Source: a virus | DNA length: 64,000 nt | Strand: one strand, 5' to 3' | IMG/VR virus record: IMGVR_UViG_3300031963_000013 | In this document: positions 7,195-61,395 of the stretch, piece by piece | Numbering within the stretch: position 1 is the stretch's first letter | Layout of the letters: the number at the start of each line of letters is the position of its first letter | Notes under the pieces: generated by a model | What the model was told of the DNA's origin: nothing | Seen by the model: the letters and a program-made list of their open reading frames with translations, nothing else | The model's database searches: none | Made by a program: the position numbers and the translations under genes

Positions 7195-7204
7195 CAACCA
7201 CATA

Positions 7205-7230
7205 AAAGCCCCTCTAACGAGGGGCATTTT
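7205..7230 (+). terminator. Intrinsic terminator-like hairpin
   Basis: GCCCCTC-TAAC-GAGGGGC followed by ATTTT after the SSB gene. Confidence 0.7.
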
Positions 7231-7238
7231 AATCTAAT

Positions 7239-8306: not shown

Positions 8307-8315
8307 AAACAAACA

Positions 8316-9332: not shown

Positions 9333-9333
9333 T

Positions 9334-28404: not shown

Positions 28405-29163
28405 ATGCAAATTTATAAAACAACTAACTTAGTAAATTCAAAGATCTATATAGGAAAAGACGTTAAAGCTAGACCAAGTTATCTAGGATCTGGATTAGCA
28501 CTAAAATCTGCTATTAAAAAGTATGGAGCTGAACTCTTTAAGAAAGAAGTGTTAGAGGATAACATAATTGATAAGTCTGTATTAGCTAGTAGAGAGAAGT
28601 ATTGGATAGCTTATTATAATTCTAACAATCCGAATATAGGTTACAATCTAACAAAGGGCGGAGATGGAGGAGATGTTTGTATAGGTAGAGTTACTATAAA
28701 TAAAGATAACGTGGAAAAGAAAGTGGCTAAAAGTGAATTAGAGTTTTATATAAATAATGGATGGAAGTTGGGATTAACAGAAGATCATAAATTAAATTGT
28801 AGTATTGGTCGCAAAGGCAAGGGTTTAGGAAAAGATAATGGAAATTATGGAAATCCCACAGGATTTAAAGGAAATGCTACATCTTTCAAACCAGGAGAAT
28901 TACACCCGATGTATAATAAAAAACAAAGTATAGACACTATTAATAAAAAAATTGAAACTAAAAGAAAAAACGGCACTTTATCAAATAACGGTTCAGAAAA
29001 AAGAAAAAAACCTATATTACAATACGATTTAAGCCACAATTTTGTAAAAGAGTGGTCGGGAGTTAGAGAAGCGATGAATGCATATAATCAAGCTAGAGTA
29101 GGCGACGTAGCAAATGGAAATGCTAAAACTGCAGCTGGATATTATTGGAAATGGAAAAATTAA
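28405..29163 (+). mobile_element. Free-standing GIY-YIG homing endonuclease with NUMOD-type DNA-binding repeats
   Basis: QIYKTTN..KIYIG, YLGSG, REKYWI, GYNLTKGGDG, HPMYNKK, PILQYDL, TAAGYYW; own TATTTAT at 28388. Confidence 0.9.
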
Positions 29164-29167
29164 AGTT

Positions 29168-30082
29168 ATGAGCAAAAAAAATGAATTAAAAATTAATCAT
29201 GCGTATCAAAAATCAGTGAGTTATTCTCAGTACTCTATGTACGAATCTTGCCAGTATCAGTGGTATTTAGCTTATGTAAAGAAAAAGAAGATATTTAAAC
29301 CAGGCATATTTCTATGTTTTGGTACTTCTTTTCACGAAACGTTACAGAATTACCTTGAAGTTATGTACAACAAATCCATAACTGCAGCTAACGAAATAGA
29401 TCTGTCCGCTTACTTAGAAGACAGAATGATAGAGAACTATAAGAAAGATCTTGAAGACAGCAACAACAATCACTACACAACAAAAGAAGAGTTTTCAGAG
29501 TTTATTGCAGATGGTGTAACAACTTTGGAGTGGTTTAAGAAAAATAGAGCAAAATACTTTTCAAAGAAAGATACTGAGTTGGTAGGCATAGAAATCCCTG
29601 TCTTACAATCAGTTACAGAATACAGTCCAAACGTGCTAATTCAGGGTTACATAGACTTCATACTGTATCACAAGAACACAGATACTTACACGATATACGA
29701 TATAAAAACATCTACTCGTGGATGGGGAGATAAGGAAAAGAAGGACGAAATAAAGCTTAGTCAAATTTTGTTATACAAGCACTTTTATTCCAAAGCGCTT
29801 AACATAGATCAAGACAAGATAGACGTAAAATTCTTTATAGTAAAAAGAAAGATATACGAAAACGTAGAGTTTCCCATACCTAGGATTCAAGAATTCGCTC
29901 CTGCTAACAAGACTAAGAAGGTTAAAGATGCTTACAATAGACTTGAAAACTTCATAAAGGAGTGCTTCACTCCAGAAGCCAAGTACAATACCGAGAGAAT
30001 CTATAAAAAGAACCTATCTTCTTGTAAGTGGTGTCAATTCTCAAACAGTCCCGAACTTTGTAATAAAAAACATGAGGAATAA
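29168..30082 (+). CDS. PD-(D/E)XK nuclease (RecB/Cas4-like)
   Basis: SYSQ..C, FGTSFHE, GYIDFI, IYDIKTS, Q..LY, CKWCQF...C. Confidence 0.85.
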   Translation: MSKKNELKINHAYQKSVSYSQYSMYESCQYQWYLAYVKKKKIFKPGIFLCFGTSFHETLQNYLEVMYNKSITAANEIDLSAYLEDRMIENYKKDLEDSNNNHYTTKEEFSEFIADGVTTLEWFKKNRAKYFSKKDTELVGIEIPVLQSVTEYSPNVLIQGYIDFILYHKNTDTYTIYDIKTSTRGWGDKEKKDEIKLSQILLYKHFYSKALNIDQDKIDVKFFIVKRKIYENVEFPIPRIQEFAPANKTKKVKDAYNRLENFIKECFTPEAKYNTERIYKKNLSSCKWCQFSNSPELCNKKHEE

Positions 30083-48621: not shown

Positions 48622-49024
48622 AAACTATAAAGAAGTTCAATCGGCAGTTAACGAGCTCCTAAAAGTATCATCAACTGTAAAAAGACGAGTTAAAACCGAA
48701 TCAGAGAAGAAGTTGGATTTTTTTGTTAGTGTTATGAATATGCTAGAAGACATTGAGGCAAGATCCATGATAGCCCAATTTGATTTTGATATAGATCTTT
48801 CTAAGTACGATGAAAAATACATGGACATTATAGATACTTTGTTGTACATATCTTACGGTAAAGAGTGTTACAATTTAATAAGTTTTTATAGGTTTGAAAG
48901 AATAAACCACGCAGATGGATCTATCAATCCAATAATAATAGAAGCCACTGGCGAAGAGGTGTTTTTAGAAAATCCTTACGATCTATACAATATGATGAGA
49001 AGGATCAATTCAAACATTGAGTAA
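48614..49024 (+). CDS. Hypothetical protein
   Basis: 136 aa coupled ORF. Confidence 0.55.
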   Translation: MPENYKEVQSAVNELLKVSSTVKRRVKTESEKKLDFFVSVMNMLEDIEARSMIAQFDFDIDLSKYDEKYMDIIDTLLYISYGKECYNLISFYRFERINHADGSINPIIIEATGEEVFLENPYDLYNMMRRINSNIE

Positions 49025-49025
49025 G

Positions 49026-49760
49026 ATGAACGACAACAATCCACAAAGAAAAGAATGGGTACATCTGGGATTGCAGTTGACAGAGGACCAGATACGAGAA
49101 GCCATGTCGAAAACAACCAGCAATAAAAAGGCCTCACAGTATTTAGACGTATCGTATCCAACCTACAAGAAGTACGCTAAAATGTATAGGGATTGGGACA
49201 CAGGAAAAACCCTTTTCGAGCTACACATGAACGAAGCAATGAAAGGCGTAGTAGGTAGAACTTGGATAGGCGGTAAACCCAGAATGAATTGGGATAACAT
49301 ACTCAGAGAGAATCAGAAGGCCACACCCGAAAGGCTTTTAAAACTCAAACAGAGTCTCATAGATTACAACAAACTCGAGTGCAGGTGTTATAGGTGCAAT
49401 TACAACCAACAAAGGATCGAAGACCACAAAGTTCCTTTGCTTCTGAATTTTAAGAACGGTGATAAAACCAATTGGAAGATGCAAAACATAGAATTCGTGT
49501 GTTACAATTGTGCTTTTGTTTACGCGTTGGACTTTTTCGATGAATCGGTAACCAGAACGGTGGAATCTTACATGATAAACGCGAAACAGGGAAAAAAGGA
49601 AAAGTCAGAGTTTTACCAATTAGACGATTTTTATTTAGACTACATAAAAAAACTGGGCATAGAATTGGATCACCTAAATAAAGATTCAGTTGAGAAAGCA
49701 GACACAATCCAAGTAAGCGAAAGACAGGACGACGTAAATGATCTGATAGATTACTTATAG
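49026..49760 (+). CDS. HTH plus degenerate HNH/Zn-finger protein
   Basis: ASQYLDVSYPTYKKYA (HTH-like); CYRC...LLLNFKNGDKTN...NIEFVCYNC (catalytic His absent). Confidence 0.65.
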   Translation: MNDNNPQRKEWVHLGLQLTEDQIREAMSKTTSNKKASQYLDVSYPTYKKYAKMYRDWDTGKTLFELHMNEAMKGVVGRTWIGGKPRMNWDNILRENQKATPERLLKLKQSLIDYNKLECRCYRCNYNQQRIEDHKVPLLLNFKNGDKTNWKMQNIEFVCYNCAFVYALDFFDESVTRTVESYMINAKQGKKEKSEFYQLDDFYLDYIKKLGIELDHLNKDSVEKADTIQVSERQDDVNDLIDYL

Positions 49761-49861
49761 GGATATACCCAGTGTCACACCACCGCATCATAACTTCAAC
49801 TTTAAACAGTAATTAGTCTCCAAAAGAAAGCTGGCCATGAGCTCCCAAATCACTCAAACGC

Positions 49862-49980
49862 AACTGATTGGAAATCAAAGCTTTGTAACTGATTGAAAAT
49901 CAAGCCTTTGCAACTCGTTGGTTTCCAATGCATATAAACTATTGGTTTCCAAAGCTTTGGGATAACTGATTGGTTTTCAA
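49862..49980. repeat. Five phased ~17-bp units, AACTnnTTG-N5-CAA
   Basis: Units at 49862, 49887, 49912, 49936/7 and 49964. Confidence 0.9.
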
Positions 49981-50072
49981 TCAAGAATTTTAAAAAAAAG
50001 TGCTAAATTATTTTTTTATTTGGGGATAGTTTCGTATATTTACCTTTCTTGTAACAAATCAAATTCAAAGTT

Positions 50073-51008
50073 ATGCAAAAAAGTAAACTATCCTACGGAC
50101 AAATGTATTACGCTAAATTGAAAGCCAGAGAGTATGGAATAAGCGTTGAAGATTATTTAGCAAATAAGGGCAAAAAGAGTTACGCGATAAAGAAAAACGT
50201 AACAGTCACTAAAACAGAAGAAATATCGTTGGACAAAGTAGTACGACTCAGCGATCTGAATGTTAGTGATAGCATGTTGAAATGTAATTCTACTGGACTT
50301 ATTGTCGATACTATATATTCGCACGAGGGCGGTATACCTGTAGGCACAAACATAATGTGTACAGGTGACCCGGGTGTGGGTAAGACTACACTGTTGCTTC
50401 ACACATTGGCAAATTTACAAAAGAAGAATCCGCATTTGAAGTGCTTGTTTGTCTGCGCAGAAATGTCGAAAATACAAATGTTCAAGTACATGCGTAGGTT
50501 CCCAGTGTTTGGCGAAGTGACAACTGTTTTTTCGTCAGATTACATGAACCATAATTTCAAAGAAGTAATGGAGAAGCTGATGGACGAGGGTTACGATTAC
50601 GTGCTTGTTGATTCAATAGTTGAAGTGCTAGAATCAGTAAAAGAGGACAACGGTATGTCTCAAGTTACCGCAGAAAAGTGGTTGATCGATCTTTGCGTAA
50701 AGAATAACGAGGCAAACAACAAGAGAAAAGTATATACCACTTTCATGCTTGTACAACAGGTAACCAAAAACGGTGTGTTTGTGGGTAGCAACAAGCTTAA
50801 ACACATCACAGATGCGCACATGGAAATGAAACGCGAGTCTGAAAGAGACGGTGGGGCTACGTACATAATGTTCTCTAAAAACAGAAACGGTCAAGCAGGC
50901 ATACGATTCAACTACCAACTTTCAAACAGTGAGATCGATTACGGTACAATGGTTAGCGAAGACGACAGCGAACAGAGGTCTTTTGCTTTAGAAAACGGTG
51001 TTAACTAA
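50073..51008 (+). CDS. RadA/Sms-like RecA-fold ATPase
   Basis: GGIP.G, GDPGVGKTT, AEM, VLVDSI, QVTKNG.FVGS..LKH..D, SKNR.G. Confidence 0.85.
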   Translation: MQKSKLSYGQMYYAKLKAREYGISVEDYLANKGKKSYAIKKNVTVTKTEEISLDKVVRLSDLNVSDSMLKCNSTGLIVDTIYSHEGGIPVGTNIMCTGDPGVGKTTLLLHTLANLQKKNPHLKCLFVCAEMSKIQMFKYMRRFPVFGEVTTVFSSDYMNHNFKEVMEKLMDEGYDYVLVDSIVEVLESVKEDNGMSQVTAEKWLIDLCVKNNEANNKRKVYTTFMLVQQVTKNGVFVGSNKLKHITDAHMEMKRESERDGGATYIMFSKNRNGQAGIRFNYQLSNSEIDYGTMVSEDDSEQRSFALENGVN

Positions 51009-51024
51009 TAAAACTATAAAAGTT

Positions 51025-51417
51025 ATGAACAAAGAACAAAATGAATTAATGAGCATATTGCTCAATTACACAGCAACCTTTACTTTATGCTATTTCCTTG
51101 CGGCGCCAATAATACTTTTCATAAACCTAATTTTAGATGATGGACCGATAAAAAAGTTTATGAAAAAATCTGTGACTATAGTATTTTATTTGTTTCTTTT
51201 GCTTTTGTTCGGTTGGCCCTTTTTCTGGTTTATCAGCCTTTTCGTACATAGCATTAGTAGCGTAGACGTTTTTTTGAACTATTTATGGTTCTTTTGTGGA
51301 TTTGTTTTGGGTTTATTAATAGCTTACTTTATATACGGTATACTATGTTTAATATTAGCGCCTTTTGGAATAGCGTTATTTTCTTTCACCCAAATAATTA
51401 AAAAAATAAAAGAATAA
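51025..51417 (+). CDS. Integral membrane protein
   Basis: Several long hydrophobic segments. Confidence 0.65.
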   Translation: MNKEQNELMSILLNYTATFTLCYFLAAPIILFINLILDDGPIKKFMKKSVTIVFYLFLLLLFGWPFFWFISLFVHSISSVDVFLNYLWFFCGFVLGLLIAYFIYGILCLILAPFGIALFSFTQIIKKIKE

Positions 51418-51421
51418 TTGC

Positions 51422-52045
51422 ATGAATAAAAAAATGGACAAAAACGTATCAGCTTTTTTAGATCACGTAAAAAAGGAATGCGAAAAACACGATGTGAAGT
51501 TAACACTAAGAAACGTTAAGTATTTTAGATTATCTCCAAAAGTGACCTGCGGTGGTTATTTTGACGATGTGAATAAAGAACTAGCGTGCTCTACAAATAG
51601 AGAGGATTGGTTAGATTTGTTAGTGCACGAGTACGCTCATATGACACAGTGGCTTGATCGTGATAACTGTGTAGAGTGGATGAACGAGCAAAAATTCAAA
51701 TCACTTGAAAAATTGGACGAATGGTTAAACGGCAAAACAAAGTATAGAATGAAGTTCCATCTTGGTGTTTGTAGAGACCTTGAACTAGACAACGAAAAAA
51801 GAACAGTAGAACTAATAAAGAAATTTGGGTTGCAAAAACACATAGACATAGATTTTTATACTAAGAAAGCAAATGCGTACGTTCTTTTCTACAACTACAT
51901 GAATTTTACAAGGCGTTGGTGCAACACGAAAAACCCGTTTTACAAAAACAATGAGCTAATCAAAAAAATGTCGAACAAATTTGATATGAATTACAACGAA
52001 TTGGATTCACACATAAAATTAACTTTTGACAAATGCAAAATATAA
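51422..52045 (+). CDS. Zincin-type metallopeptidase-like protein
   Basis: GGYF...LVHEYAH...LE. Confidence 0.65.
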   Translation: MNKKMDKNVSAFLDHVKKECEKHDVKLTLRNVKYFRLSPKVTCGGYFDDVNKELACSTNREDWLDLLVHEYAHMTQWLDRDNCVEWMNEQKFKSLEKLDEWLNGKTKYRMKFHLGVCRDLELDNEKRTVELIKKFGLQKHIDIDFYTKKANAYVLFYNYMNFTRRWCNTKNPFYKNNELIKKMSNKFDMNYNELDSHIKLTFDKCKI

Positions 52046-52437
52046 ACCAATCTAGATTACACAGGGGTCATGCGAAGCGGGTTTTGGATTGGTGCATTGA
52101 ACGATATGGAAAATCGAAGTATAGTAAGCATTATCCAACTATTAGGTTCATAAAGTTTACTGATTACGAAAACATCGGTCTGCTTGGATATTACGAGCCA
52201 GAATTTTGTGAAATATTCATAAATAGTGAGGATCATTTAAACGTAGACGAATTGTGCAAGACAATCATTGAGGAGTATCAGCACTACATGCAATCCGATA
52301 GCCAATATCAGAAAATGGCCAAGGTATACAGTTACGATCAACACCCGCTTGAAAAGCAAGCTCAAAAGATAGCAAATACACATTATAAAATTTGTGTAAA
52401 AGAATTAAAAAAATACCATAAGACATTCTTCTTTTAA
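52033..52437 (+). CDS. Zincin-like protein with degenerate HExxH
   Basis: LGYY...IIEEYQH...HPLE..A. Confidence 0.5.
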   Translation: MQNINQSRLHRGHAKRVLDWCIERYGKSKYSKHYPTIRFIKFTDYENIGLLGYYEPEFCEIFINSEDHLNVDELCKTIIEEYQHYMQSDSQYQKMAKVYSYDQHPLEKQAQKIANTHYKICVKELKKYHKTFFF

Positions 52438-52462
52438 ACAATTCATAATATTTATATTCAGT

Positions 52463-52672
52463 ATGTTAATTGACGTATTAGACAAGGTAGCAAACAAAAA
52501 AATACCCGCTGGGGTCCACAAGTATTTGCATGTAGATAGTAGAAAGGCATGGGTTGAATCAGTTATATATTTAGTAGAAAATGCTAATGTAAAACTAGAC
52601 GTTCGTACTTTAAACACGCTAACAAAGAATTGGGAATCTATTTTATATAAAAAATACAGCACGTTAAATTAA
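52463..52672 (+). CDS. Hypothetical protein
   Basis: TATTTATA at 52449. Confidence 0.5.
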   Translation: MLIDVLDKVANKKIPAGVHKYLHVDSRKAWVESVIYLVENANVKLDVRTLNTLTKNWESILYKKYSTLN

Positions 52673-52673
52673 G

Positions 52674-52940
52674 ATGAATAGTAACATGCCCTTCACAACA
52701 GAAGCACTACAGTACGGGATATTAGGAATAGTAGCACTGCTACTAGGGTATTTTGCATGGTCGCAATGGCAAAGACTCGAAAGAAAAAACTTAGAGTTAG
52801 AAAAAAAGGTAGATAGACTACAAAGTGAGATCATAGAAATAATGGGAGAAGAGAGGGATCGCATGGCAACCCTAGTTCAAGACAACACAAAAGCAATTCA
52901 AGAGTTATCAAGAATCATTTTAGAGTACATAGTAAAATAA
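52674..52940 (+). CDS. Single-TM plus coiled-coil protein, holin-like (BhlA/UviB architecture)
   Basis: QYGILGIVALLLGYFAW followed by a charged coiled coil. Confidence 0.45.
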   Translation: MNSNMPFTTEALQYGILGIVALLLGYFAWSQWQRLERKNLELEKKVDRLQSEIIEIMGEERDRMATLVQDNTKAIQELSRIILEYIVK

Positions 52941-52962
52941 AAACAAACCAAAAATCAAAGTT

Positions 52963-53169
52963 ATGAAAAAAATGTATTGCAAAATCTGCAACAAGGAAAT
53001 TCATCCAAAAAGAGTTCAATTAGGTTACAACGACACTTGCGTAGATCACTCGTCAACTTCAAGGTACACAGGAGTTATATCCGCGTCAGGTAAGTCAGAT
53101 TACGAGATAAACGTAATAAGAAACAAAGAGCAAGCACAGCACATCGTATCACTCTCTAATATTTATTAA
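52963..53169 (+). CDS. Small Zn-finger protein (DksA/TraR-like pattern)
   Basis: CKIC..EI..KR......TCVDH. Confidence 0.5.
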   Translation: MKKMYCKICNKEIHPKRVQLGYNDTCVDHSSTSRYTGVISASGKSDYEINVIRNKEQAQHIVSLSNIY

Positions 53170-53174
53170 AAAAC

Positions 53175-53357
53175 ATGAAATTAGACAACCTAACTTCTGA
53201 AGAAAAAAAGCAACTTAAGGAGTACATTCACAGCTTGAAAGAGATAAAGAAGTGCATCTCTGAACTTTTAGAAAAGGCAAACGTAAAAACAAACGATTTG
53301 GATGAAGTAGGTGGAAACATGTCAAAGGGTTTGACTCTGCATGTTGCTGAAAATTAA
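53175..53357 (+). CDS. Hypothetical protein
   Basis: TATTTAT at 53160. Confidence 0.5.
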   Translation: MKLDNLTSEEKKQLKEYIHSLKEIKKCISELLEKANVKTNDLDEVGGNMSKGLTLHVAEN

Positions 53358-53374
53358 TAATAAATTAACAAGTT

Positions 53375-53716
53375 ATGCATTTATTTTTAGGTACTTTTTA
53401 TGGTTTCATAGGCCAAGTAATTAGTTTCTTAGCTTTACAAGGATCTTACAAGTACAATTTTCTAAAGGACAACGAGTGGATAGTAATTGCATCAGGAATG
53501 CCTACAGCTTTCTTTTTTTACAAAAGCGTTCATCACTTTATTGTTGCTTTTAACGGAGAGATGTGGCCGTCTAGACTTCTTGGATACTCTATAGGAGCGA
53601 TCGTATTTTACTTCATGTCTGCCATCTTATTTAAGGAAGCACTTACAATGAAAACAGTGGTGTGTTTGATTCTGTCATTGGTGATAATGCTGGTTCAAAT
53701 ATATTGGAAAAATTAA
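53375..53716 (+). CDS. Four-TM membrane protein (SMR/DMT-like size)
   Basis: Four hydrophobic segments; LFKE.LT pattern. Confidence 0.55.
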   Translation: MHLFLGTFYGFIGQVISFLALQGSYKYNFLKDNEWIVIASGMPTAFFFYKSVHHFIVAFNGEMWPSRLLGYSIGAIVFYFMSAILFKEALTMKTVVCLILSLVIMLVQIYWKN

Positions 53717-53740
53717 ACAACAAATAAAATTAAAAAGTTT

Positions 53741-53953
53741 ATGAAATTTACAAAAATTTACGAAATACTGCAGGATCTGGAAGAACACGAAAAGATAGAA
53801 ATGCTAAGATTGTTACAAGCGGAAGTGGAAGATTGGGATAGTTTATCCGTATCTGCTGTAGAGTATCAAAACGCTATTAAAACTCTAGAGAAAGCTTACT
53901 ACACGGATGGAGTCCGCGCCGAGACTATCTTAAAAATAGCAAAAAAATACTGA
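53741..53953 (+). CDS. Hypothetical protein
   Basis: A-rich leader, 70 aa. Confidence 0.55.
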   Translation: MKFTKIYEILQDLEEHEKIEMLRLLQAEVEDWDSLSVSAVEYQNAIKTLEKAYYTDGVRAETILKIAKKY

Positions 53954-53965
53954 TAAAACAAGTGT

Positions 53966-54157
53966 ATGATTGATAAGATTGAGAATTTCAACGAAAACAA
54001 AGCTTTGGATTTGTTTGAGCTCATAGAATTGATGTTTAACAATAAGCCAGACAAAAGAAAGAAGTTAGAATACACAGAGTGGAAGAACAACATAAACTCG
54101 TGGATAAACAAATGTAACAAGCTTTGCAAATTTAAAGTTTACGATAACCAAAAATAA
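53966..54157 (+). CDS. Hypothetical protein
   Basis: 63 aa ORF in a tight gene string. Confidence 0.5.
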   Translation: MIDKIENFNENKALDLFELIELMFNNKPDKRKKLEYTEWKNNINSWINKCNKLCKFKVYDNQK

Positions 54158-54161
54158 AAAA

Positions 54162-54371
54162 ATGAAAAAGTATTTCCAAGTAAAGGTCCAATTCCGTCAA
54201 GAAGACGAAAGAGGTAAAATCAAAAAAGTGAATGTACAATACCTAGTCGATGCTATGAGTTGCACCGAAGCCGAAGCGAGAGTTGTTAAGTGGCTCGGAA
54301 GTATGAATGACTACGAAGTAAAATCTGTGTCTGAGTCACAAATAGCGGAAGTGATAGCTGTAGACAACTAA
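54162..54371 (+). CDS. DUF4494-like protein
   Basis: GKIKKV..QYLVDAMSCTEAEAR...YEVKSV. Confidence 0.75.
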   Translation: MKKYFQVKVQFRQEDERGKIKKVNVQYLVDAMSCTEAEARVVKWLGSMNDYEVKSVSESQIAEVIAVDN

Positions 54372-54449
54372 TTGTTTGGTGCATACACACTAGAACCGAT
54401 AATTTTATAGTCTAAAACAAATATAGTATATTTACTTAAATAGTTAGTT

Positions 54450-54653
54450 ATGTCATACTACATGATTCTGTGTTTAATAGTCATAGTTATTGCTCAAGCA
54501 GTTTATATCCTATATTTGCAATTCAACTTAGAAGAATACATGTATAAAATATCCTTCCTAGTGGATCAGCTCAAGAAGGTATCAAGCTCATTACACCACT
54601 TTCGAAGTGACAAAAAACAAAACGAATTAACAAAAGATAAAAATACAAAATAA
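54450..54653 (+). CDS. Small membrane-anchored protein
   Basis: N-terminal TM; promoter candidate at 54396-54434. Confidence 0.55.
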   Translation: MSYYMILCLIVIVIAQAVYILYLQFNLEEYMYKISFLVDQLKKVSSSLHHFRSDKKQNELTKDKNTK

Positions 54654-54655
54654 AG

Positions 54656-54922
54656 ATGCTTACGATTAAATACTTCACTGCTACCTGGTGTGCTCCTTGT
54701 CGAGCTTTTGGGCCAATAGTAGATCAAGTTACGCAACAATACGCAAATAAAGTCAATCTCGTAAAGATAGACATCGAGACTAACGAGAGAGAAGTTTTTG
54801 GTTATTCGATTGTCAGCGTTCCGACTATGGTGTTTTTAAAAGGTGACACTGTTGTTCGTGTGCACAAGGGCGCAATGTCAAAACAACAACTTCAATCTTT
54901 GATAGAAGATTCGATTCACTAA
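54656..54922 (+). CDS. trx: Thioredoxin
   Basis: FTATWCAPC, SVPT. Confidence 0.92.
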   Translation: MLTIKYFTATWCAPCRAFGPIVDQVTQQYANKVNLVKIDIETNEREVFGYSIVSVPTMVFLKGDTVVRVHKGAMSKQQLQSLIEDSIH

Positions 54923-54943
54923 AACAAATTAAATAAAGGTTAT

Positions 54944-55300
54944 ATGAATGCTTCAAGCGAATTAACTCTCAAGAGTTTGTATCCCCCTGTGTGTGTATAC
55001 GGCGATTACTCAAAAAGCTGGTACATAATAGCCGATGGAGTTTGGCACCAGGTTAGAAGGAAGTACTCGTGGATGGAATTGGAGAAAATGTGGGAAAGAA
55101 GAGTAAGTACAAAGATCGAATATCCTAGAAAAAAAATCAATCACGAAAAGAAGAAGTGGCTCGTAGTCGGTAGCAAAGGAAACAATTACACTGTAGAAGT
55201 TTCTGGAGCAAATTGGACTTGTACGTGTCCATCTCACGGTTTTGGAAGAGGGAGAGACTGTAAACACATAACTCAAATAAAATCAAAAAATGGACAATAG
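54944..55300 (+). CDS. SWIM Zn-finger protein
   Basis: GSKGNNY.V...CTCP.......CKH. Confidence 0.8.
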   Translation: MNASSELTLKSLYPPVCVYGDYSKSWYIIADGVWHQVRRKYSWMELEKMWERRVSTKIEYPRKKINHEKKKWLVVGSKGNNYTVEVSGANWTCTCPSHGFGRGRDCKHITQIKSKNGQ

Positions 55301-55628
55301 AATAGAGTACATAGATTCGCTGATACAAAGCATCACAGAACTAGAAGAGTCTTCAAACCCAGAGTACCGAATGGAAGAGCGCCAGTTTGAATTGTTCAAA
55401 GAACACTTGGTTCGTACGTGCAACGATAACTACCGCAAGTATTTAAGGGGAGAGCTAGACAGTTACGAAATCACAGAGCAGCAGTACGACGATGTGTACG
55501 ATGAATCATGTTTGGAATACGCTTCAGAGGTTCTTGACAACCTCGTAGATATGGGCTTTATGGAGGCAAGCGTATCTGAAACTGGAGAGATCCTATATGG
55601 AGCAATAGATCACAATAAAAACAAATAA
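55290..55628 (+). CDS. Acidic hypothetical protein
   Basis: 112 aa coupled ORF. Confidence 0.55.
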   Translation: MDNRIEYIDSLIQSITELEESSNPEYRMEERQFELFKEHLVRTCNDNYRKYLRGELDSYEITEQQYDDVYDESCLEYASEVLDNLVDMGFMEASVSETGEILYGAIDHNKNK

Positions 55629-55635
55629 AAGTTAT

Positions 55636-55731
55636 ATGAAAAAAGAAACAAAAAACGCCATCATCGTCATTGCGGCGATATTAGTATACGTTGCAACTGC
55701 AGCGTTGGTATCTTACTTATTAGGAGCATAA
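55636..55731 (+). CDS. 31-aa single-TM microprotein (not in ORF track)
   Basis: MKKETKNAIIVIAAILVYVATAALVSYLLGA after an AAAAGTTAT leader. Confidence 0.55.
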   Translation: MKKETKNAIIVIAAILVYVATAALVSYLLGA

Positions 55732-55761
55732 ACAATAGTAATCAAAAAACCCAAAATAAAA

Positions 55762-56418
55762 ATGAAAACAACAATTTTATCGTTGATAGCTTTATTAGCA
55801 TTAACAACGTCCAACGCGCAAACAACAAACAGTGGAGGAGGACAATCACCAGAGAACACAGTTATTAGAATGAGATACGCAGGTTACCAGCAAGGCAACC
55901 ACGTATTCGTAATAAAAAACAAGAGAAACTGTGTGATAGGCATAACCACGAGAGTGGACACCGAGCAAGCTAGGGACACCACCATCCCCGCCCAAGACTC
56001 TATAGAGTTTAAAGTGCCAAAGCCAAGCGCTTTTACCCAAACAAAGTTCAGAGCAAAGGTTACTGAGGACTGCGTTCAAGATCCCAACCTGGGGTGGATA
56101 GAGATGGTAGTGCCATTCGCAAGCGCTTTATCTTTGTACGAAAGAGACCCCGAATATGTGAGAGAGAGACAGGGAATGACAGTTAAACTCGCATCAGTGG
56201 GAGCTGTGTTGGTAACCATGGGAGACAGCAAGAACTACTCAGTCTCAGTAGAAGAGCACGATCAACTCGGAAGAAAACTGTTAACAACCCAAATAAGGGC
56301 AACAAGATCTGCAACTGTGACTTTACCGAGGAGGCAACAGAACCAAATAACGTATTTAGTAGTAACAGTTCAAAGCAACCTACCCCATACGTTTACCTTA
56401 AAGAGAGTCCAACAGTAA
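55762..56418 (+). CDS. Secreted protein with possible T9SS C-terminal sorting domain
   Basis: Signal peptide ending SNA|Q; C-terminus DQLGRKL...TYLV.V...TLKRV. Confidence 0.5.
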   Translation: MKTTILSLIALLALTTSNAQTTNSGGGQSPENTVIRMRYAGYQQGNHVFVIKNKRNCVIGITTRVDTEQARDTTIPAQDSIEFKVPKPSAFTQTKFRAKVTEDCVQDPNLGWIEMVVPFASALSLYERDPEYVRERQGMTVKLASVGAVLVTMGDSKNYSVSVEEHDQLGRKLLTTQIRATRSATVTLPRRQQNQITYLVVTVQSNLPHTFTLKRVQQ

Positions 56419-56453
56419 CAAAACAAAAGTTATTAATAACCAAGCTTGAAATT

Positions 56454-56663
56454 ATGGAAAAGAAATTAACAATGATCGATCCACCAAGCGGTTGGCAATT
56501 TGGTTTCCCAAAACCAATACCTGAAGATAGAAAAAATGATGTTATTCCTTGGCTTATAGAACAAGGGTATCCTCAACATCTTATAGATGAACTAGGTGAG
56601 CATTTTTGTTGTAGATATTGGGAACAACCTGATGGAATAAAAACTAAAAAAGAAATAATATGA
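56454..56663 (+). CDS. Hypothetical protein
   Basis: IDPPSGW.FGFPK; 69 aa. Confidence 0.6.
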   Translation: MEKKLTMIDPPSGWQFGFPKPIPEDRKNDVIPWLIEQGYPQHLIDELGEHFCCRYWEQPDGIKTKKEII

Positions 56664-57427
56664 AAAATCTACATTTATTGCCTACATACAAACCAAGTAG
56701 GTTATCAATACTAAATAGTGGTAAACTTAACTTTGGAGCAGAAATAATAAGTTCTTCTAACTCAAAACCTCAACACATCTACATCACTTCTGATGAAGAA
56801 ATTAAAGAAGGAGATGGTAGTTGGATTTTAGATTTAAGGTCAAATAGAAAGGCTAAAAATATAAATAACCATATTAAGGTTTGGAATGAAAACTGTAAAA
56901 AAATCACCCTAACAACAGACCAAGACTTAATCAAAGATGGTGTACAAGCTATTGATGATGAGTTTTTAGAATGGTTTGTAAAGAATCCAAGTTGTGAGGA
57001 AGTTGAAGTTGGATATGGGTGGATTAGACTTACTGAAACTGACAATGAAGGATATTGGGTTTCTATTCCTGATAAACAATTTGAAATGCAACAAGAAGAA
57101 CCTAAACAAGAAACACTTGAAGAAGTTGCTGAAAGATTACATCCAGTATGTATAAAACCTATACTTGATAAGTATGATGATAGAGTAACTAATGTTATTA
57201 GTGAAGAAGATGTAAATGAAGATTGCAGAGAGAGTTTTATTGAAGGTGCTAAATGGCAACAAGAAAGAATGTATAGTGAGGAAGATTTAAAGAAAGCATA
57301 TTTTTCCGCTATTGAAATAACTGGTGAGGGTTGGAATGGAGAATATGCTCAAGGTAATAATCCTAATATTGAAGAAACATTCCAAGAAGAGTTTAATCAA
57401 TGGTTTGAACAATTTAAAAAGAAATAA
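56660..57427 (+). CDS. Hypothetical protein, modular-array member
   Basis: Contains ETLEE, GAKWQQERMYSEE and FEQFKKK modules. Confidence 0.65.
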   Translation: MKNLHLLPTYKPSRLSILNSGKLNFGAEIISSSNSKPQHIYITSDEEIKEGDGSWILDLRSNRKAKNINNHIKVWNENCKKITLTTDQDLIKDGVQAIDDEFLEWFVKNPSCEEVEVGYGWIRLTETDNEGYWVSIPDKQFEMQQEEPKQETLEEVAERLHPVCIKPILDKYDDRVTNVISEEDVNEDCRESFIEGAKWQQERMYSEEDLKKAYFSAIEITGEGWNGEYAQGNNPNIEETFQEEFNQWFEQFKKK

Positions 57428-57428
57428 C

Positions 57429-57767
57429 ATGAATAAAGAATTTATCCCTTACGAACAAGCATTAGCACTTAAAGAACTTGGGTTTGATGAACCTTGTTTT
57501 GCTTGGTATGTTAGTGAGAAGCATGGATTGGAATATGGCAAAGTAATACAATCAGACTTACTCAGAGATGCTGTCATTGCACCAACATTCTCACAAGCAT
57601 TTAGATGGTTTAGAGAGAAATATGAACTATATTCTTTTGTATTTAAGTTTGATGAAGGATTTGGTTATGAAACTTACAAAGAAGGTGTAACACAAACCAA
57701 TGATTCATTTGACACCTATGAAGAAGCAGAACTTGCTTGTCTTAATAAGTTAATTGAAATTGTATAG
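57429..57767 (+). CDS. Hypothetical protein, modular-array member
   Basis: MNKEFIPYEQALALKELGFDEPC...TYEEAELACL. Confidence 0.65.
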   Translation: MNKEFIPYEQALALKELGFDEPCFAWYVSEKHGLEYGKVIQSDLLRDAVIAPTFSQAFRWFREKYELYSFVFKFDEGFGYETYKEGVTQTNDSFDTYEEAELACLNKLIEIV

Positions 57768-57792
57768 AGAACAATTTAAAAATTAAATAACT

Positions 57793-58236
57793 ATGGCACA
57801 ACAAACAGCAGTAGAATTTTTAATAAAAGCATTTCAAGGTGCTTATGGAGATAAAGTAATAAATGTAGTATCTGTACAAGTTGAACAAGCCAAACAAATG
57901 GAGAAGCAGCAAATATTTGATGCCTTTAAAGAAGGAGTATCAGATGGATTTGATGGCTGGGGAGATACATATAAAGAAAAATACTACAATGAAACTTATG
58001 GAAGTAAGGGAAGTGATGAATTTAAAACTAATTTAGACAGATTGCCTTTCCCTGAATTAGTAGAAGAAATTGCTAAGTATTATGAAAAAGTACCTATAAT
58101 AGAAGCCACATCTTCCCAAACAGAAATATCAGATGAGGAGATAGAGAAAGAATCAAATAGAATTAATGGGGTATATTCAATAGCATTTGAGGAAGGAGCC
58201 AAATGGTACAGAGAACAATTAAAAAAGAAAATATGA
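57793..58236 (+). CDS. Hypothetical protein, modular-array member
   Basis: QTAVE, EQAKQMEKQQ and GAKW modules. Confidence 0.65.
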   Translation: MAQQTAVEFLIKAFQGAYGDKVINVVSVQVEQAKQMEKQQIFDAFKEGVSDGFDGWGDTYKEKYYNETYGSKGSDEFKTNLDRLPFPELVEEIAKYYEKVPIIEATSSQTEISDEEIEKESNRINGVYSIAFEEGAKWYREQLKKKI

Positions 58237-58469
58237 CACCAAAAGAAAAAGCAAAAGAGTTATGCAATAAGTTTTTAAGAACTTATAAAGTTGATCTTTA
58301 TCCTCCATTTAATTCAGCAAGTCAAGAAGCCAAACAATGTGCTTTAATAGCAGCAGATGAGATATTAAATGTCGTATCACGATATAATGCCAGTTGGCAT
58401 TGGCCAATGGATACTGCAAACGAATTTTATTATTGGCAAGAAGTAAAACAAGAAATTGAAAAGTTATGA
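58233..58469 (+). CDS. Hypothetical protein, modular-array member
   Basis: MTPKEKA..AKQCALI..YWQEVKQEIEKL. Confidence 0.65.
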   Translation: MTPKEKAKELCNKFLRTYKVDLYPPFNSASQEAKQCALIAADEILNVVSRYNASWHWPMDTANEFYYWQEVKQEIEKL

Positions 58470-58642
58470 ATAAAGAATTATTAACTAAATTATTAAGTGC
58501 GGCTCAGGAATTGGTAGTAACCCCTAAAGCCGATTATATCCACCTTTCCGAAGAATTCATACAGAAAAAAGCTGACGAAGAGAATGTATCATTTGAGGAA
58601 ATGGTAAATATTATTGAAAATTATCTGAAACCAAAACAATAG
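58466..58642 (+). CDS. 58-aa hypothetical protein (not in ORF track)
   Basis: ATGA overlap; MNKELL...; fills the gap in the array. Confidence 0.5.
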   Translation: MNKELLTKLLSAAQELVVTPKADYIHLSEEFIQKKADEENVSFEEMVNIIENYLKPKQ

Positions 58643-58648
58643 AAAGTT

Positions 58649-58849
58649 ATGAATAAAGAAAGATACAATCAGATTATTGATGTGGCGTATGAGAATTATA
58701 CTCAAACCAAGATTATTAAAACTAATAGTGGTGAAACACACATATCTCCTATAGGTCATTATAATGGAATGACCAAAGAAGAATTCATCAACAAATGTAA
58801 AACTGACACAGAGTTCTCAGAAATGTGGGGATTAAAAAGAAAAATCTAA
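58649..58849 (+). CDS. Hypothetical protein, modular-array member
   Basis: MNKE start module. Confidence 0.55.
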   Translation: MNKERYNQIIDVAYENYTQTKIIKTNSGETHISPIGHYNGMTKEEFINKCKTDTEFSEMWGLKRKI

Positions 58850-58863
58850 TCATAACGATTTAT

Positions 58864-59166
58864 ATGGAAAATAAACAAACAGCAGCAGAATGGCTAATAG
58901 ACCAACTACGTCAACTTGCACATAACCCAAGCACACATCTAGGAATGGGTGATATAAGAGTTACACAAGGAATACTTGATGATCTTGAAGAACAAGCCAA
59001 ACAAATGGAGAAGGAGCAAGCTGAAAGAATGTATAGTGAGGCAATTGAGTTTGCTGAGTGGATTAGAATCAAGGACTTCCAAACTGCATCTAAAGATAAT
59101 TGGATTGGCTTAAATATGAAATGCTATACAACAAAAGAATTATTTGAACAATTTAAAAAGAAATAA
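58864..59166 (+). CDS. Hypothetical protein, modular-array member
   Basis: QTAAEWL + EQAKQMEKEQ + ERMYSE + FEQFKKK. Confidence 0.65.
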   Translation: MENKQTAAEWLIDQLRQLAHNPSTHLGMGDIRVTQGILDDLEEQAKQMEKEQAERMYSEAIEFAEWIRIKDFQTASKDNWIGLNMKCYTTKELFEQFKKK

Positions 59167-59168
59167 TT

Positions 59169-59402
59169 ATGACACCAAAAGAGAAAGCAGAAGAGTTGGT
59201 TATTAAAATGTATCAGCCACTACTAGCTTCAAAAGAAGCAGAAAAAGGTAAAGAACATTTATATTATCAATATAAGGCAGCCAAACAATGTGCTTTGATT
59301 TGTGTGCAGGAAATACAAAGTAGAATTGTTAATCACCCGATGGATTGGGGCGCAAGTTCTTTGTATTGGGGACAAGTAAAACAAGAAATTGAAAAGCTAT
59401 GA
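59169..59402 (+). CDS. Hypothetical protein, modular-array member
   Basis: Paralog of 58233-58469. Confidence 0.65.
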   Translation: MTPKEKAEELVIKMYQPLLASKEAEKGKEHLYYQYKAAKQCALICVQEIQSRIVNHPMDWGASSLYWGQVKQEIEKL

Positions 59403-59593
59403 GTAAAAGACAAACTGCTGTTGAATGGTTAGTAGATGAGTTATTAGATGGTAAACTTTTAATGCCATCACTAATCGAAGAAGCCAAACAAATGGAGAAG
59501 GATCAAATGAAAATAATGTTCGAGAAGGGAATAAAATTCATGTCTCCACCCCCTGGAAACAGCTATATGGCAATCAAAAACCCAAAGCAATAA
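59399..59593 (+). CDS. Hypothetical protein, modular-array member
   Basis: QTAVEWL + EEAKQMEKDQ. Confidence 0.6.
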   Translation: MSKRQTAVEWLVDELLDGKLLMPSLIEEAKQMEKDQMKIMFEKGIKFMSPPPGNSYMAIKNPKQ

Positions 59594-59595
59594 AA

Positions 59596-59901
59596 ATGAA
59601 ATACACCTACGACATAAGACAGTTCAAATACAACAAAGAGACAAACACCCTGTACGCTGAAGCTTTCAACCTAGAGGCACAGCTGCCCGACGGAAGCACG
59701 CACCAAGACCCGTTCCCAAGCGGTAGGGGACAGTTCTACGTAAAGAACCACGAAACCGGCAACGAGAGAAGGTTCACTTCCCTAAAGGAACAAACGGTCA
59801 AGTACTACGACAACCACGAGGAAGAGGGCTGGACCCAAGAGTTCACGCAGTGGGTGTTCGAGTCCGAGGACGGCATCAAGTGCGTGGTGAACCTTGACTA
59901 A
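59596..59901 (+). CDS. Hypothetical protein
   Basis: 101 aa; strongly C-ending codons. Confidence 0.65.
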   Translation: MKYTYDIRQFKYNKETNTLYAEAFNLEAQLPDGSTHQDPFPSGRGQFYVKNHETGNERRFTSLKEQTVKYYDNHEEEGWTQEFTQWVFESEDGIKCVVNLD

Positions 59902-60174
59902 CCGGCGCAAAAACCGAGGGGTACCCAAGGCAACGGCCGGAAAAACCGAAATCACCAAAGAAACACGGAAGCTGGGGGATAGACACGTAGGGGGAAATAC
60001 TCCCGTCTTCACCATCATCGCCAAAAAAATTGTCCGATATGTTGCTAAGGCAAAAAAAGAGAAGAACCATGAGCACGGGTGCAGCACAGGACGCATATAA
60101 AAATAGCTACCGCAAACACCGCTGTACGAACCAACGATAATTATTTTATCGCAAGTGTGCATATTTATTGTTAG

Positions 60175-60455
60175 AATACACGCACCAGTGTAGCGAAACT
60201 AAGCAGTCACCGTTGACCGTACGGCAGTGAAACAATAACGGCACAAGTCTCACAGAGCTCAGGAACAATAGAGGTTTTAGGTATACCATCGGTAGTAGAC
60301 CAAAGGCAAGCAGGGTGGCAACGAGCGTTGGGGCACAAAAGCACTCTCGGTCCAAGTAATCGAACCCGTCGGTGGACATGGGAATAAAATTTACTTGCTC
60401 GGTGAAGGGGACTCCTGGAATCGGGCACGAGTGGTGTAATGTGGTTACTCGATAG
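60175..60455 (+). ncRNA. Candidate structured non-coding RNA
   Basis: No + strand ORF; TATTTAT at 60162; hairpins at 60177-92, 60207-30, 60280-301, 60396-427, 60428-51. Confidence 0.5.
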
Positions 60456-60497
60456 ATATTCTTTACAGTTTAGGGGGAATTCAGTACATTTACCCTT

Positions 60498-60695
60498 ATG
60501 GTATCGATACACTTCTTATACGTTCTATTTTTTACTCTCAACGTTTTGGTGGTTGCGGGAGGCATCAAGTTCTTGAGCAGCTACACTTGCAACACAGAAA
60601 GGGACATGGACACGGTCGCTTACGTTAAATTCTCGATATGGGTGAACGCCGGACTGGCCGCCCTCTGGTGTGCCCTGGCCTTCCTGGGTAACTGA
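60498..60695 (+). CDS. Small two-TM membrane protein
   Basis: Two hydrophobic segments. Confidence 0.5.
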   Translation: MVSIHFLYVLFFTLNVLVVAGGIKFLSSYTCNTERDMDTVAYVKFSIWVNAGLAALWCALAFLGN

Positions 60696-61227: not shown

Positions 61228-61272
61228 TCTGTACGCCGTTGCTGGCCTGGAAAACACCCAAAACAAACAAAC

Positions 61273-61395
61273 AGTCAGGTGGCGGAATTGGTAGACGCTA
61301 TATCAATAGTAGTGGAGACATAGAGTGGAATCTATGCCGCCCGCCAAAAAGAAAGAACTGATAAACCATTACAGGTTCGATTCCTGTCCTGACCA
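61273..61395 (+). ncRNA. tRNA-like RNA with expanded anticodon arm (not a canonical tRNA)
   Basis: Acceptor GTCAGG/CCTGAC; D-arm GCGGAATTGGTAGACGC; T-arm ACAGG-TTCGATT-CCTGT; ~53-nt insert closed by TATCA/TGATA. Confidence 0.75.

Follow-up and report, generated by a model that had tools for sequence, protein, structure and literature searches.

Short blocks of coding DNA, which recur in frame in an array of small phage genes, probably serve as joints for homologous recombination and thereby re-sort these genes over evolutionary time. The array consists of eleven small co-directional ORFs on the (+) strand of an uncultured phage (positions 56454-59901 of the window, the whole stretch of 64,000 nucleotides that was analysed). 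We found that the blocks are conserved beyond the protein level, that the variable segments between them assort independently among related phages, that tracts of identity end inside blocks, and that one ORF of the array (g8) is a chimera of two modules. That in-frame blocks act as recombination joints had been proposed in an earlier note on this DNA, and the independent assortment, the tract ends and the unsaturated synonymous sites all support this.

In the proposed mechanism, homologous recombination between matching blocks would re-sort units from one variable segment up to half a gene or an entire gene, with the reading frame kept, and the exchange partners would be co-infecting phages with members of the same families. 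The drivers would presumably be the phage's own general recombination proteins; the window encodes a gp32-like SSB, two RecA/UvsX-like proteins, a 5'-3' exonuclease and a PD-(D/E)XK nuclease. Repeated block exchange, together with purifying selection on the fold core, would keep the blocks alike across phages whose core genes are synonymously saturated. The process would run on an evolutionary time scale.

Layout of the array and its exact repeats

Neighbouring ORFs of the array overlap by 4 nt at start and stop codons or are separated by a spacer of at most 25 nt, and all copies are complete, translationally coupled ORFs. About ten tightly coupled ORFs had been described before; eleven were found, as follows.

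g1, 56454..56663, (+): 69 aa; opens the coupled array; no modules in common with the other genes; its stop overlaps the g2 start
g2, 56660..57427, (+): 255 aa; taken as the reference for the main constant/variable family
g3, 57429..57767, (+): 112 aa; second family; accompanies g2 in varying order and copy number
g4, 57793..58236, (+): 147 aa; two-block N-terminal module also in g8 and g10; C-terminal end resembles g2 C4
g5, 58233..58469, (+): 78 aa; phrog_21441 family; g9 paralog
g6, 58466..58642, (+): 58 aa; has its start-codon block in common with g3 and g7
g7, 58649..58849, (+): 66 aa; C-terminal block seen again in other phages
g8, 58864..59166, (+): 100 aa; g4/g10-type N-terminal module fused in frame to a g2-type C4-V5-C5 module
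g9, 59169..59402, (+): 77 aa; phrog_21441 family; g5 paralog
g10, 59399..59593, (+): 64 aa; third gene with the g4-type N-terminal module
g11, 59596..59901, (+): 101 aa; closes the coupled array; no modules in common

The array is best explained as a hyperplastic accessory-gene region of a large phage (contigs up to ~173 kb), and the host of this phage probably belongs to the Flavobacteriales. The GC content of the array is ~0.32. The earlier view that the array is AT-rich unlike its flanks holds only for the stretches at 55-56 kb and 60-64 kb beside it, where GC is higher; numerous other regions of the window match the array in AT-richness.

A repeat search recovered every one of the exact blocks that had been listed before. 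For instance, there was a 24-mer at 57883 and 58990 (its core again at 59481), a 19-mer at 57263 and 59023, a 24-mer at 57404 and 59143, and a 23-mer at 58441 and 59374; start-codon blocks were found at 58233/59169 and at 57429/58466/58649. The repeats are all direct and include many different sequences. At k=17, 13 repeated blocks were observed vs a mean of 0.02 in Markov-1 simulations.

These matches could in principle come from ordinary old paralogs, with conserved peptide motifs written in AT-biased codons. The blocks do coincide with conserved peptide motifs, and the protein identity between array paralogs is only 34-40% (40% for g5 vs g9), as such a reading would have it. However, when the proteins were kept and synonymous codons were redrawn from local usage, 300 resamplings gave a mean of 1.7 and a maximum of 6 blocks, compared with the 13 observed. 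In addition, 101 of the 138 codons at identical residues of the paralogs were identical, whereas ~73 were expected. It is therefore confirmed that the exact blocks exceed both chance and what protein conservation plus codon bias would give.

Constant and variable parts of the genes

g2 is built from six constant blocks and five variable segments. The constant blocks are the following.

g2 C0, 56660..56704, (+): aa 1-15; mean pairwise nucleotide identity 0.82 across 79 genes; conserved at codon level
g2 C1, 56771..56824, (+): aa 38-55; one independent contig of the phage ends here, at 56798
g2 C2, 56897..57010, (+): aa 80-117; longest joint, 114 nt
g2 C3, 57095..57124, (+): aa 146-155
g2 C4, 57236..57286, (+): aa 193-209; also in g8, 59016-59041
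g2 C5, 57401..57427, (+): aa 248-255 plus stop; joint at the gene end; recurs where g8 ends, 59143-59166

C2 has 88-95% nucleotide identity in dozens of loci that are otherwise unrelated (mean pairwise identity 0.845), and the 26-nt core of C4 is 100% identical in 16 listed loci. At C3, short genes of other phages begin with a start codon at the block. The earlier observation that the sequence between blocks is unrelated was borne out, since the variable segments of g2 differ in length and are not alignable among 78 distinct relatives (mean nucleotide identity 0.44-0.55). Constant blocks of 24-114 nt alternate with non-homologous variable segments of 20-40 codons, and the gene starts and ends are constant blocks as well. 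The same architecture was found in the g4-type and g5/g9-type families. The g4 module has blocks at 57800-57825 and 57883-57906, and across the g4 family (69 sequences) the major-codon fraction at four-fold sites of the constant blocks is 0.66. The g5/g9 family has three constant blocks.

Conservation of the blocks extends to the codons. Among the 78 distinct relatives of g2, which lie on unrelated contigs, the major-codon fraction in the blocks is 0.89 for four-fold residues and 0.855 for six-fold ones. As a control, we compared the RNR core gene of the window with that of L018 (68% amino acid identity). Where the amino acid was identical, the codon identity was 0.53, 0.33 and 0.19 at 2-, 4- and 6-fold residues, and this gene is synonymously saturated, whereas the g2 blocks of the same phage pair have identical codons at 47/50, 15/17 and 8/11 of such residues. 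The synonymous-site comparison suggested in the earlier note thus placed the blocks far from saturation. Furthermore, the consensus codon differs from the genome-preferred codon in 27 of 80 conserved columns, one third, and therefore codon bias is not the cause of block conservation. Resampling, the RNR control and the non-preferred codons contradict the old-paralog reading, which is also at odds with the discordant assortment of variable alleles described below and is hardly credible. Inside the blocks, pS is 0.34 and pN is 0.165, as expected from coding constraint plus shallow ancestry.

Alternatively, the blocks could be conserved at the nucleotide level for a regulatory, RNA- or translation-level signal, and the mosaicism would be a side effect. 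Non-preferred codons are held at fixed positions, as such a signal could require, and block identity is star-like: pairwise identities of C2 are unimodal at ~0.86 with almost no pair >0.95, and two paralogs on the same contig resemble each other no more than do genes on different contigs. This pattern fits very frequent pool-wide exchange, and it fits direct selection on nucleotides equally well. Intragenomic gene conversion as the homogeniser was not supported by the same comparison of paralogs. C2 also folds more stably than mononucleotide shuffles, but only mildly (mean z -1.6), and RNAalifold gave no consensus structure in 60 C2 blocks, so RNA structure was rejected as the reason for C2 conservation. 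In addition, a shared signal is difficult to reconcile with many different block sequences in several unrelated families, all in frame and on conserved peptide motifs, with a pS that is still twice pN, and with recent exchange tracts that demonstrably stop inside blocks. We thus regard this alternative as unlikely.

Re-assortment among relatives and the fixed array of this lineage

The variable segments of g2 and its relatives assort independently. Every one of the 19 gene pairs (22 genes) with a variable allele in common, at 0.90 or higher, has another that stands at 0.65 or lower, and no gene pair is concordant at all five variable segments. For example, L063 has its V2 in common with L055 and L068, its V4 with L028 and L034, and its V5 with L022, and one V2 allele occurs in four different genes from different samples. 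The identity tracts begin and end inside constant blocks. Among more distant relatives, the order, copy number and content of the array vary, i.e. there is no fixed collinear array, as the reading of the blocks as joints had anticipated. For instance, 19 of 80 g2 loci contain the g3 family, which reaches six copies in a locus and three consecutive tandem copies.

The ORF at 58864 (g8) had been called a chimera, and both its g4/g10-type N-terminal module and its g2-type C-terminal module were indeed found in other combinations. The C-terminal module stands behind at least four kinds of N-terminus in 20 or more loci (73-94% amino acid identity), and the N-terminal module is present in L116 and L122, there with g4-like tails.

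Two contigs, L087 and L088, have a backbone near-identical to the window and diverge from it inside C2 and C3 of g2. L087 has 0 mismatches in 48660-56979, 14 in 56980-57115, and is unrelated after 57125; the left edge of its divergence lies in C2 (first mismatch at 56980), and after ~8.3 kb of identity this single contig carries a different gene set. L088 is identical to the window up to 57114, and from 57032 it is 100% identical to the L289/L292 allele, whose genomic context is different; the crossover lies within the exact 83-nt run 57032-57114. The similarity breaks of L087 and L088 are at 57125 and 57142, respectively, at C3. Both are single unreplicated contigs ending soon past the junction, and a search for replicate contigs of the L087 variant found none. 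If an assembler had hopped from one phage to another within the sequence that they share (an exact run of 83 nt in the case of L088), the contigs would look just the same.

Such hops raise the question of whether the mosaics in general are assembly artefacts, in which different phages were joined at shared blocks. The unreplicated state of L087 and L088 and the position of the L088 crossover in an exact repeat would agree with this, and the contig ends of independent assemblies of the phage (56798, 59407, 59533) cluster within the array. However, several mosaic alleles were recovered identically from two or three independent samples: L028 equals L025 at 99.99% identity, these being independent assemblies of one allele, and identical match tables were obtained for L026 with L028/L025, for L034/L035 and for L020/L022. 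The V2 allele shared by four genes also comes from different samples. Furthermore, the window contig, which carries both the g8 chimera and the repeats within the genome, is reproduced in at least 24 assemblies, and we infer that the k-mers of the final assembly far exceed most of the shared exact runs in length. An origin of the mosaics in assembly is thus quite improbable.

In the lineage of this phage itself, the array is best explained as fixed. At least six contigs of the phage, obtained from different samples, match at 100.000% identity over lengths of up to 12.8 kb that include the array, with no variation among independent assemblies across it. When the genes flanking the array on either side served as anchors, the loci retrieved mostly had the fixed array. 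The identity among assemblies does not support an active or dedicated form of the diversification system that had been proposed earlier. A programmed diversifier acting during infection cycles, such as a DGR, a shufflon or gene conversion from silent cassettes, would have the constant/variable layout and the tandem paralogs in its favour, although the likeness to cassette systems is superficial. No inverted repeat pairs are present in 55500-60500, only two short overlapping palindromes. The variable segments are unequal in length and unalignable, so there is no template/variable repeat pair; each copy is a complete coupled ORF, and no silent cassettes were found in the array. Pfam searches of the 20 large ORFs of the window detected neither a reverse transcriptase nor a site-specific recombinase, and PHROGs searches of 10 ORFs likewise gave no reverse transcriptase. 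A programmed system is thus very improbable here. The fixed array, and the fact that no reverse transcriptase was detected among the scanned ORFs and no inverted repeats or silent cassettes in the array, therefore point to shuffling over evolutionary time by general recombination, and the many different joint sequences also fit general homologous recombination rather than a site-specific enzyme.

Protein families and comparison with known systems

The array is best explained as holding members of several very large, previously undescribed families of small modular proteins. The g2 family has at least 7,995 metagenomic relatives and was found in 344 viral loci. With g2 as the query, tblastn detected no match at E<=1e-5 in 50,697 deposited phage genomes. 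The g9 family occurs in at least 466 viral loci in a pattern scan. When the ten array proteins were searched by sequence against Pfam, PHROGs and PDB, nothing was above threshold except phrog_21441, a profile of unknown function, which matched g5 (E 1.7e-14) and g9 (E 2.4e-14) over positions 1-75 of 75. There were weak matches of g3 to phrog_25117 and phrog_12005, and the g7 block at 58760-58836 has 83-86% identity in six loci. A literature search with motif strings and descriptions of intragenic mosaics found no paper on the array families.

In the predicted structure of g2, a beta-rich N-terminal domain (aa 1-145) precedes a C-terminal half made of helices (full model pLDDT 75.8; N-domain pLDDT 84.9, pTM 0.80). 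Foldseek searches of both models against PDB gave no clear relative (E 0.4 or worse). In VIA-align, the best match (Z 5.4) covered helical hairpins only, and the best for the N-domain (2.6) was to signal-peptidase/LexA-like barrels. Matches in BFVD were only to uncharacterised phage proteins, including those of Tenacibaculum phage PTm1 and a crAss-like phage. None of the family, fold or literature matches points to a function, including the anti-defence or host-takeover role considered possible in the earlier note. Judged solely by their constant/variable architecture and by where the array lies, the array proteins may be binding proteins of variable specificity for phage-host or phage-phage conflict.

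A close comparison may be made with the hyperplastic regions of T4-type phages, which carry PeSL cassettes (Arbiol et al. 2010, PMC2839356; also PMC4122927). Like the array, these regions are clusters of small non-essential genes without known function, their gene content differs between near-identical phages (here L087, a single contig), and their modules are shuffled by recombination between short conserved DNA motifs; T4-like recombination proteins are also present in the phage of the window. However, PeSLs are intergenic promoter-plus-terminator cassettes, whereas the array genes overlap or abut, and promoter- or terminator-like sites in the array (sigma-70 consensus only) did not exceed the shuffled expectation. 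The joints of the array are instead blocks of in-frame coding sequence that lie within genes or at their ends, and therefore exchange makes chimeric proteins at sub-domain scale and not only new gene orders.

The T-even gp38 tail-fibre adhesins have hypervariable segments between conserved glycine-rich motifs (Trojet et al. 2011, PMC3157838). As in g2, conserved motifs and hypervariable segments alternate in one gene, and as in the array proteins the conserved parts are the structural core. In contrast to gp38, the consensus blocks of the array are not glycine-rich, the proteins have no virion or adhesin signature and no Pfam, PHROG or PDB match to gp38, and they are small, multi-copy and tandem and belong to several families. 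The array joints also differ in being conserved to synonymous sites across phages with saturated core genes.

DGRs, like the array, produce phage-encoded protein variation on a constant scaffold. However, no equal-length template/variable repeat pair is present in 55500-60500, and the variable segments are unrelated and unequal in length, unlike the adenine substitutions of DGRs. The inverted repeats that bound the invertible segments of shufflons are absent as well.

In Neisseria pilE/pilS, Borrelia vlsE and Plasmodium var, constant DNA flanks variable mini-cassettes, and homologous exchange yields combinatorial protein variants. The array resembles these systems in the constant stretches that serve as exchange substrates around variable cassettes. 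It differs from the pilE/pilS type in lacking an expression site fed by silent donors, each copy being a complete ORF, and in showing no switching within a clone, independent assemblies being 100% identical. Many phage genomes together make up the exchange pool, which antigenic-variation systems keep within a single genome. As a tentative extension, which we consider conceivable but doubtful, the codon conservation of the joints may itself be selected. The blocks would then belong to a population-wide kit that assembles small binding proteins in frame from shared beta-hairpin/helix cassettes, a viral between-genome counterpart of antigenic-variation or antigen-receptor cassettes, and its logic might be common with that of the tRNA-shaped RNAs with swappable inserts that adjoin the array.

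Recombination at conserved linkers is a classical idea in phage biology, and most of the documented cases concern whole genes or tail-fibre adhesins. Here the principle applies at sub-domain scale, with cassettes of 20-40 codons, in several enormous families of small non-structural proteins, one of which has at least 8,000 members without a Pfam entry, a solved relative or a paper found. These families are a natural and very large data set on how short homologies shape viral protein evolution, on whether homology can persist because it favours exchange, and on the role of widespread 'dark matter' proteins of phages. In practice, metagenome assemblies become fragmented or wrongly joined at such arrays because of the shared blocks.

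Repeated blocks and distribution of the array families

The array consists of eleven closely packed, co-directional ORFs (g1-g11).

56454-59901, + strand: g1-g11; neighbours overlap by 4 nt or are separated by no more than 25 nt
56660-57427, + strand: g2, 255 aa

The repeat search located all of the exact blocks named in the earlier note, each where that note had placed it. At word size 17, we found 13 repeated blocks in the array; Markov simulations gave 0.02, and synonymous redraws from local codon usage, with the proteins kept, gave a mean of 1.7 and a maximum of 6 (300 trials). The array paralogs share only 34-40% protein identity. In addition, an identical codon was used at 101 of the 138 identical residues among paralogs, and about 73 were expected. 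Thus, the repeats are real and non-random, and protein conservation and codon bias are insufficient as their cause. The distinct composition described for the array held against its immediate flanks, but not against the window beyond them.

The ORF starting at 58864 (g8) had been read as a chimera, correctly, since both of its halves recur in other combinations. Its C-terminal module was found elsewhere, with 73-94% protein identity, in four types of setting. It ends full-length g2-type proteins and also short proteins starting at the constant block C3 of g2, and it follows other, unrelated N-termini; in locus L056, nucleotide identity is 94% over 157 nt. In loci L116 and L122, the N-terminal module is followed by g4-like tails. 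Every family copy in the array is a complete ORF.

None of the ten array proteins searched reached Pfam thresholds, and only g5 and g9 matched a PHROG (both 21441, with no assigned function). The metagenome protein collection contained at least 7,995 relatives of g2, every named one being "hypothetical", and IMG/VR contained 344. However, g2 had no match at E ≤ 1e-5 in deposited phage genomes. Among 185,579 species genomes there were 13 g2-type loci, all on MAG contigs, 6 of them binned as Flavobacterium or Flavobacteriales. A literature search found no paper on these families. In the best 80 of the 344 viral loci, the g2, g3, g4, g5, g7, g8, and g10 families occur together, with up to 13 family pieces per locus, and portions of g2 are also found as stand-alone genes. 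Order and copy number vary among these loci, so the relatives do not form a fixed collinear array. Much bigger tandem arrays of the same families were seen in other phages (L010/L011 and L029), with 8 pieces in one 10-kb stretch and 13 g2-type and g3-type pieces at another locus.

Constant blocks and variable segments of the g2 family

An alignment of 78 distinct g2-family genes, drawn from the best 80 viral loci, showed that five variable segments (V1-V5) alternate with six constant blocks.

Constant blocks of g2 in the alignment of 78 genes
C0: aa 1-15
C1: aa 38-55
C2: aa 80-117
C3: aa 146-155
C4: aa 193-209
C5: aa 248-255

Mean pairwise nucleotide identity was 0.66-0.85 in the blocks and 0.44-0.55 in the variable segments; the latter matches that of unrelated AT-rich sequences, and these segments also differ in length. 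Within the blocks, the commonest codon had a share of 0.89 at four-fold and 0.855 at six-fold residues, and median pS and pN were 0.34 and 0.165. The consensus codon differed from the genome-preferred codon in 27 of 80 conserved columns. For instance, ATC makes up 0.13 of the genome's Ile codons, yet at five positions 0.67-0.88 of the genes retain it.

The phage of L018, whose RNR is 68% identical to that of the window, served as control. Codon identity at identical RNR residues was 0.53, 0.33, and 0.19 (two-, four-, and six-fold), which is the saturation level, whereas the g2 blocks of this phage pair are unsaturated (47/50, 15/17, and 8/11, respectively). The g4-type and g5/g9-type families showed the same architecture more weakly, with 0.66-0.72 at four-fold sites.

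Pairwise identity of C2 was unimodal near 0.86, and hardly any pair exceeded 0.95. Paralogs on the same contig were no more similar than genes of different contigs, which contradicts within-genome gene conversion as the homogeniser. The C2 pattern fits either very frequent pool-wide exchange or direct nucleotide selection. No consensus RNA structure was found in C2, and its folding z-score was only mildly negative.

Re-assortment of variable segments

In 19 gene pairs (22 of 79 genes), one V allele was shared at ≥0.90 while another V segment was at ≤0.65, and no pair was concordant at all five V segments. For example, L028 and L034 differ in V2 and are identical in the rest. L063 has V2 in common with L055 and L068, V4 with L028 and L034, and V5 with L022; V3 and V5 are common to L013 and L041, whose V1 segments differ. 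Codon-by-codon profiles showed that the near-identical tracts start and stop within constant blocks. Several mosaic alleles were recovered by independent assembly from two or three samples. Furthermore, the C2-V3-C3 stretch of the window was found at 90-94% identity in five other metagenome contigs with unrelated surroundings. The proposal that the blocks act as recombination joints is thus supported at the evolutionary scale.

Two near-clonal contigs have junctions in C2 and C3. L087 has 0 mismatches to the window at 48660-56979 and 14 at 56980-57115; past 57125, similarity is limited to C4 and C5, and downstream L087 carries other members of the array families. L088 equals the window up to 57114 and, from 57032 on, is 100% identical to the L289/L292 allele, which has a different genomic context. 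L088 therefore matches both alleles over an exact 83-nt run (57032-57114), which places a crossover inside it. An assembler hop across the shared run would look identical; neither contig has a replicate, and each stops a short way past its junction.

As for re-assortment within the window phage, the earlier note had proposed a cassette-like diversification system. A programmed form of it was not supported, because at least six contigs assembled for this phage in different samples match the window at 100.000% identity, over up to 12.8 kb that takes in the array. There were no inverted repeat pairs in the array repeat search, no template/variable repeat pairs in the g2 family, and no reverse transcriptase among the window ORFs scanned (20 large ORFs against Pfam). 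The joints are many different sequences, and this diversity points to general homologous recombination as the probable route.

Independent assemblies of the window phage end within the array (56798, 57785/57907, 59407/59533, and 59712). In two samples, the paired contigs share terminal overlaps of 123 nt and 127 nt, which fall on the N-terminal modules of g4 and g10. These ends suggest branching of the assembly graph at blocks common to co-occurring phages or variants.

Positions 11940-11966 of L087 correspond to window 61272-61299. The alternative array thus extends to the tRNA-shaped RNA gene downstream and meets its constant 5′ arm, beyond which L087 and the window differ again; one variable region therefore holds both the shuffled protein genes and the RNAs with swappable inserts. 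Metagenome contig L289 carries an FKBP-type peptidyl-prolyl isomerase-like ORF (about 80-570, reverse strand); immediately downstream of this ORF is a g2-family gene with the V3 allele of the window, in an otherwise unrelated context.

Predicted structure, known systems, and phage setting

The full g2 model had a pLDDT of 75.8. The N-domain (aa 1-145) was modelled with a pLDDT of 84.9 and a pTM of 0.80 and comprises about twelve secondary-structure elements; V1, V2, and V3 are each predicted as a beta-hairpin that sits between conserved core strands and helices. Solved structures gave no convincing match to the g2 models, and BFVD matches were uncharacterised phage proteins only, including remote ones of Tenacibaculum phage PTm1 and a crAss-like phage. 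From architecture and array location, our working inference is that the array proteins are candidate variable-specificity binding proteins for conflict with the host or other phages.

The closest working analogue of the array is the PeSL-mediated shuffling in T4 hyperplastic regions, where the joints are intergenic regulatory cassettes (PMC2839356). However, the promoter and terminator scan (sigma-70 consensus only) showed no such cassettes in the array. The closest architectural analogue of the g2-type alternation is the gp38 adhesin, which has hypervariable segments between conserved motifs (PMC3157838), but the array proteins have neither homology to gp38 nor adhesin features.

The source phage is large and uncultured, and the identical g2 protein was found on contigs up to 172.7 kb, the longest found. 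The replication and recombination genes of the window encode a gp32-like SSB, two RecA/UvsX-like proteins, a 5′-3′ exonuclease, DnaB, RNR, DNA polymerase, and a PD-(D/E)XK nuclease.

6358-10713, 29114-30082, and 50073-51008: complete general recombination and replication set (SSB, two RecA/UvsX-like, exonuclease, DnaB, PD-(D/E)XK)
21183-22805: phage GroEL
about 30.3-47.9 kb: long sugar-nucleotide/glycosyltransferase cluster (DegT aminotransferase, two epimerase/dehydratases, GT2 and GT10 transferases, 4Fe-4S protein)

In addition, a 118-aa ORF (54944-55300) has a C-terminal CxC...CxH spacing that, judged by eye, recalls a SWIM zinc finger. A 750-aa protein (15908-18160) carries a TonB-dependent-receptor plug (PF07715) and an outer-membrane beta-barrel (PF14905), which is unusual phage cargo.
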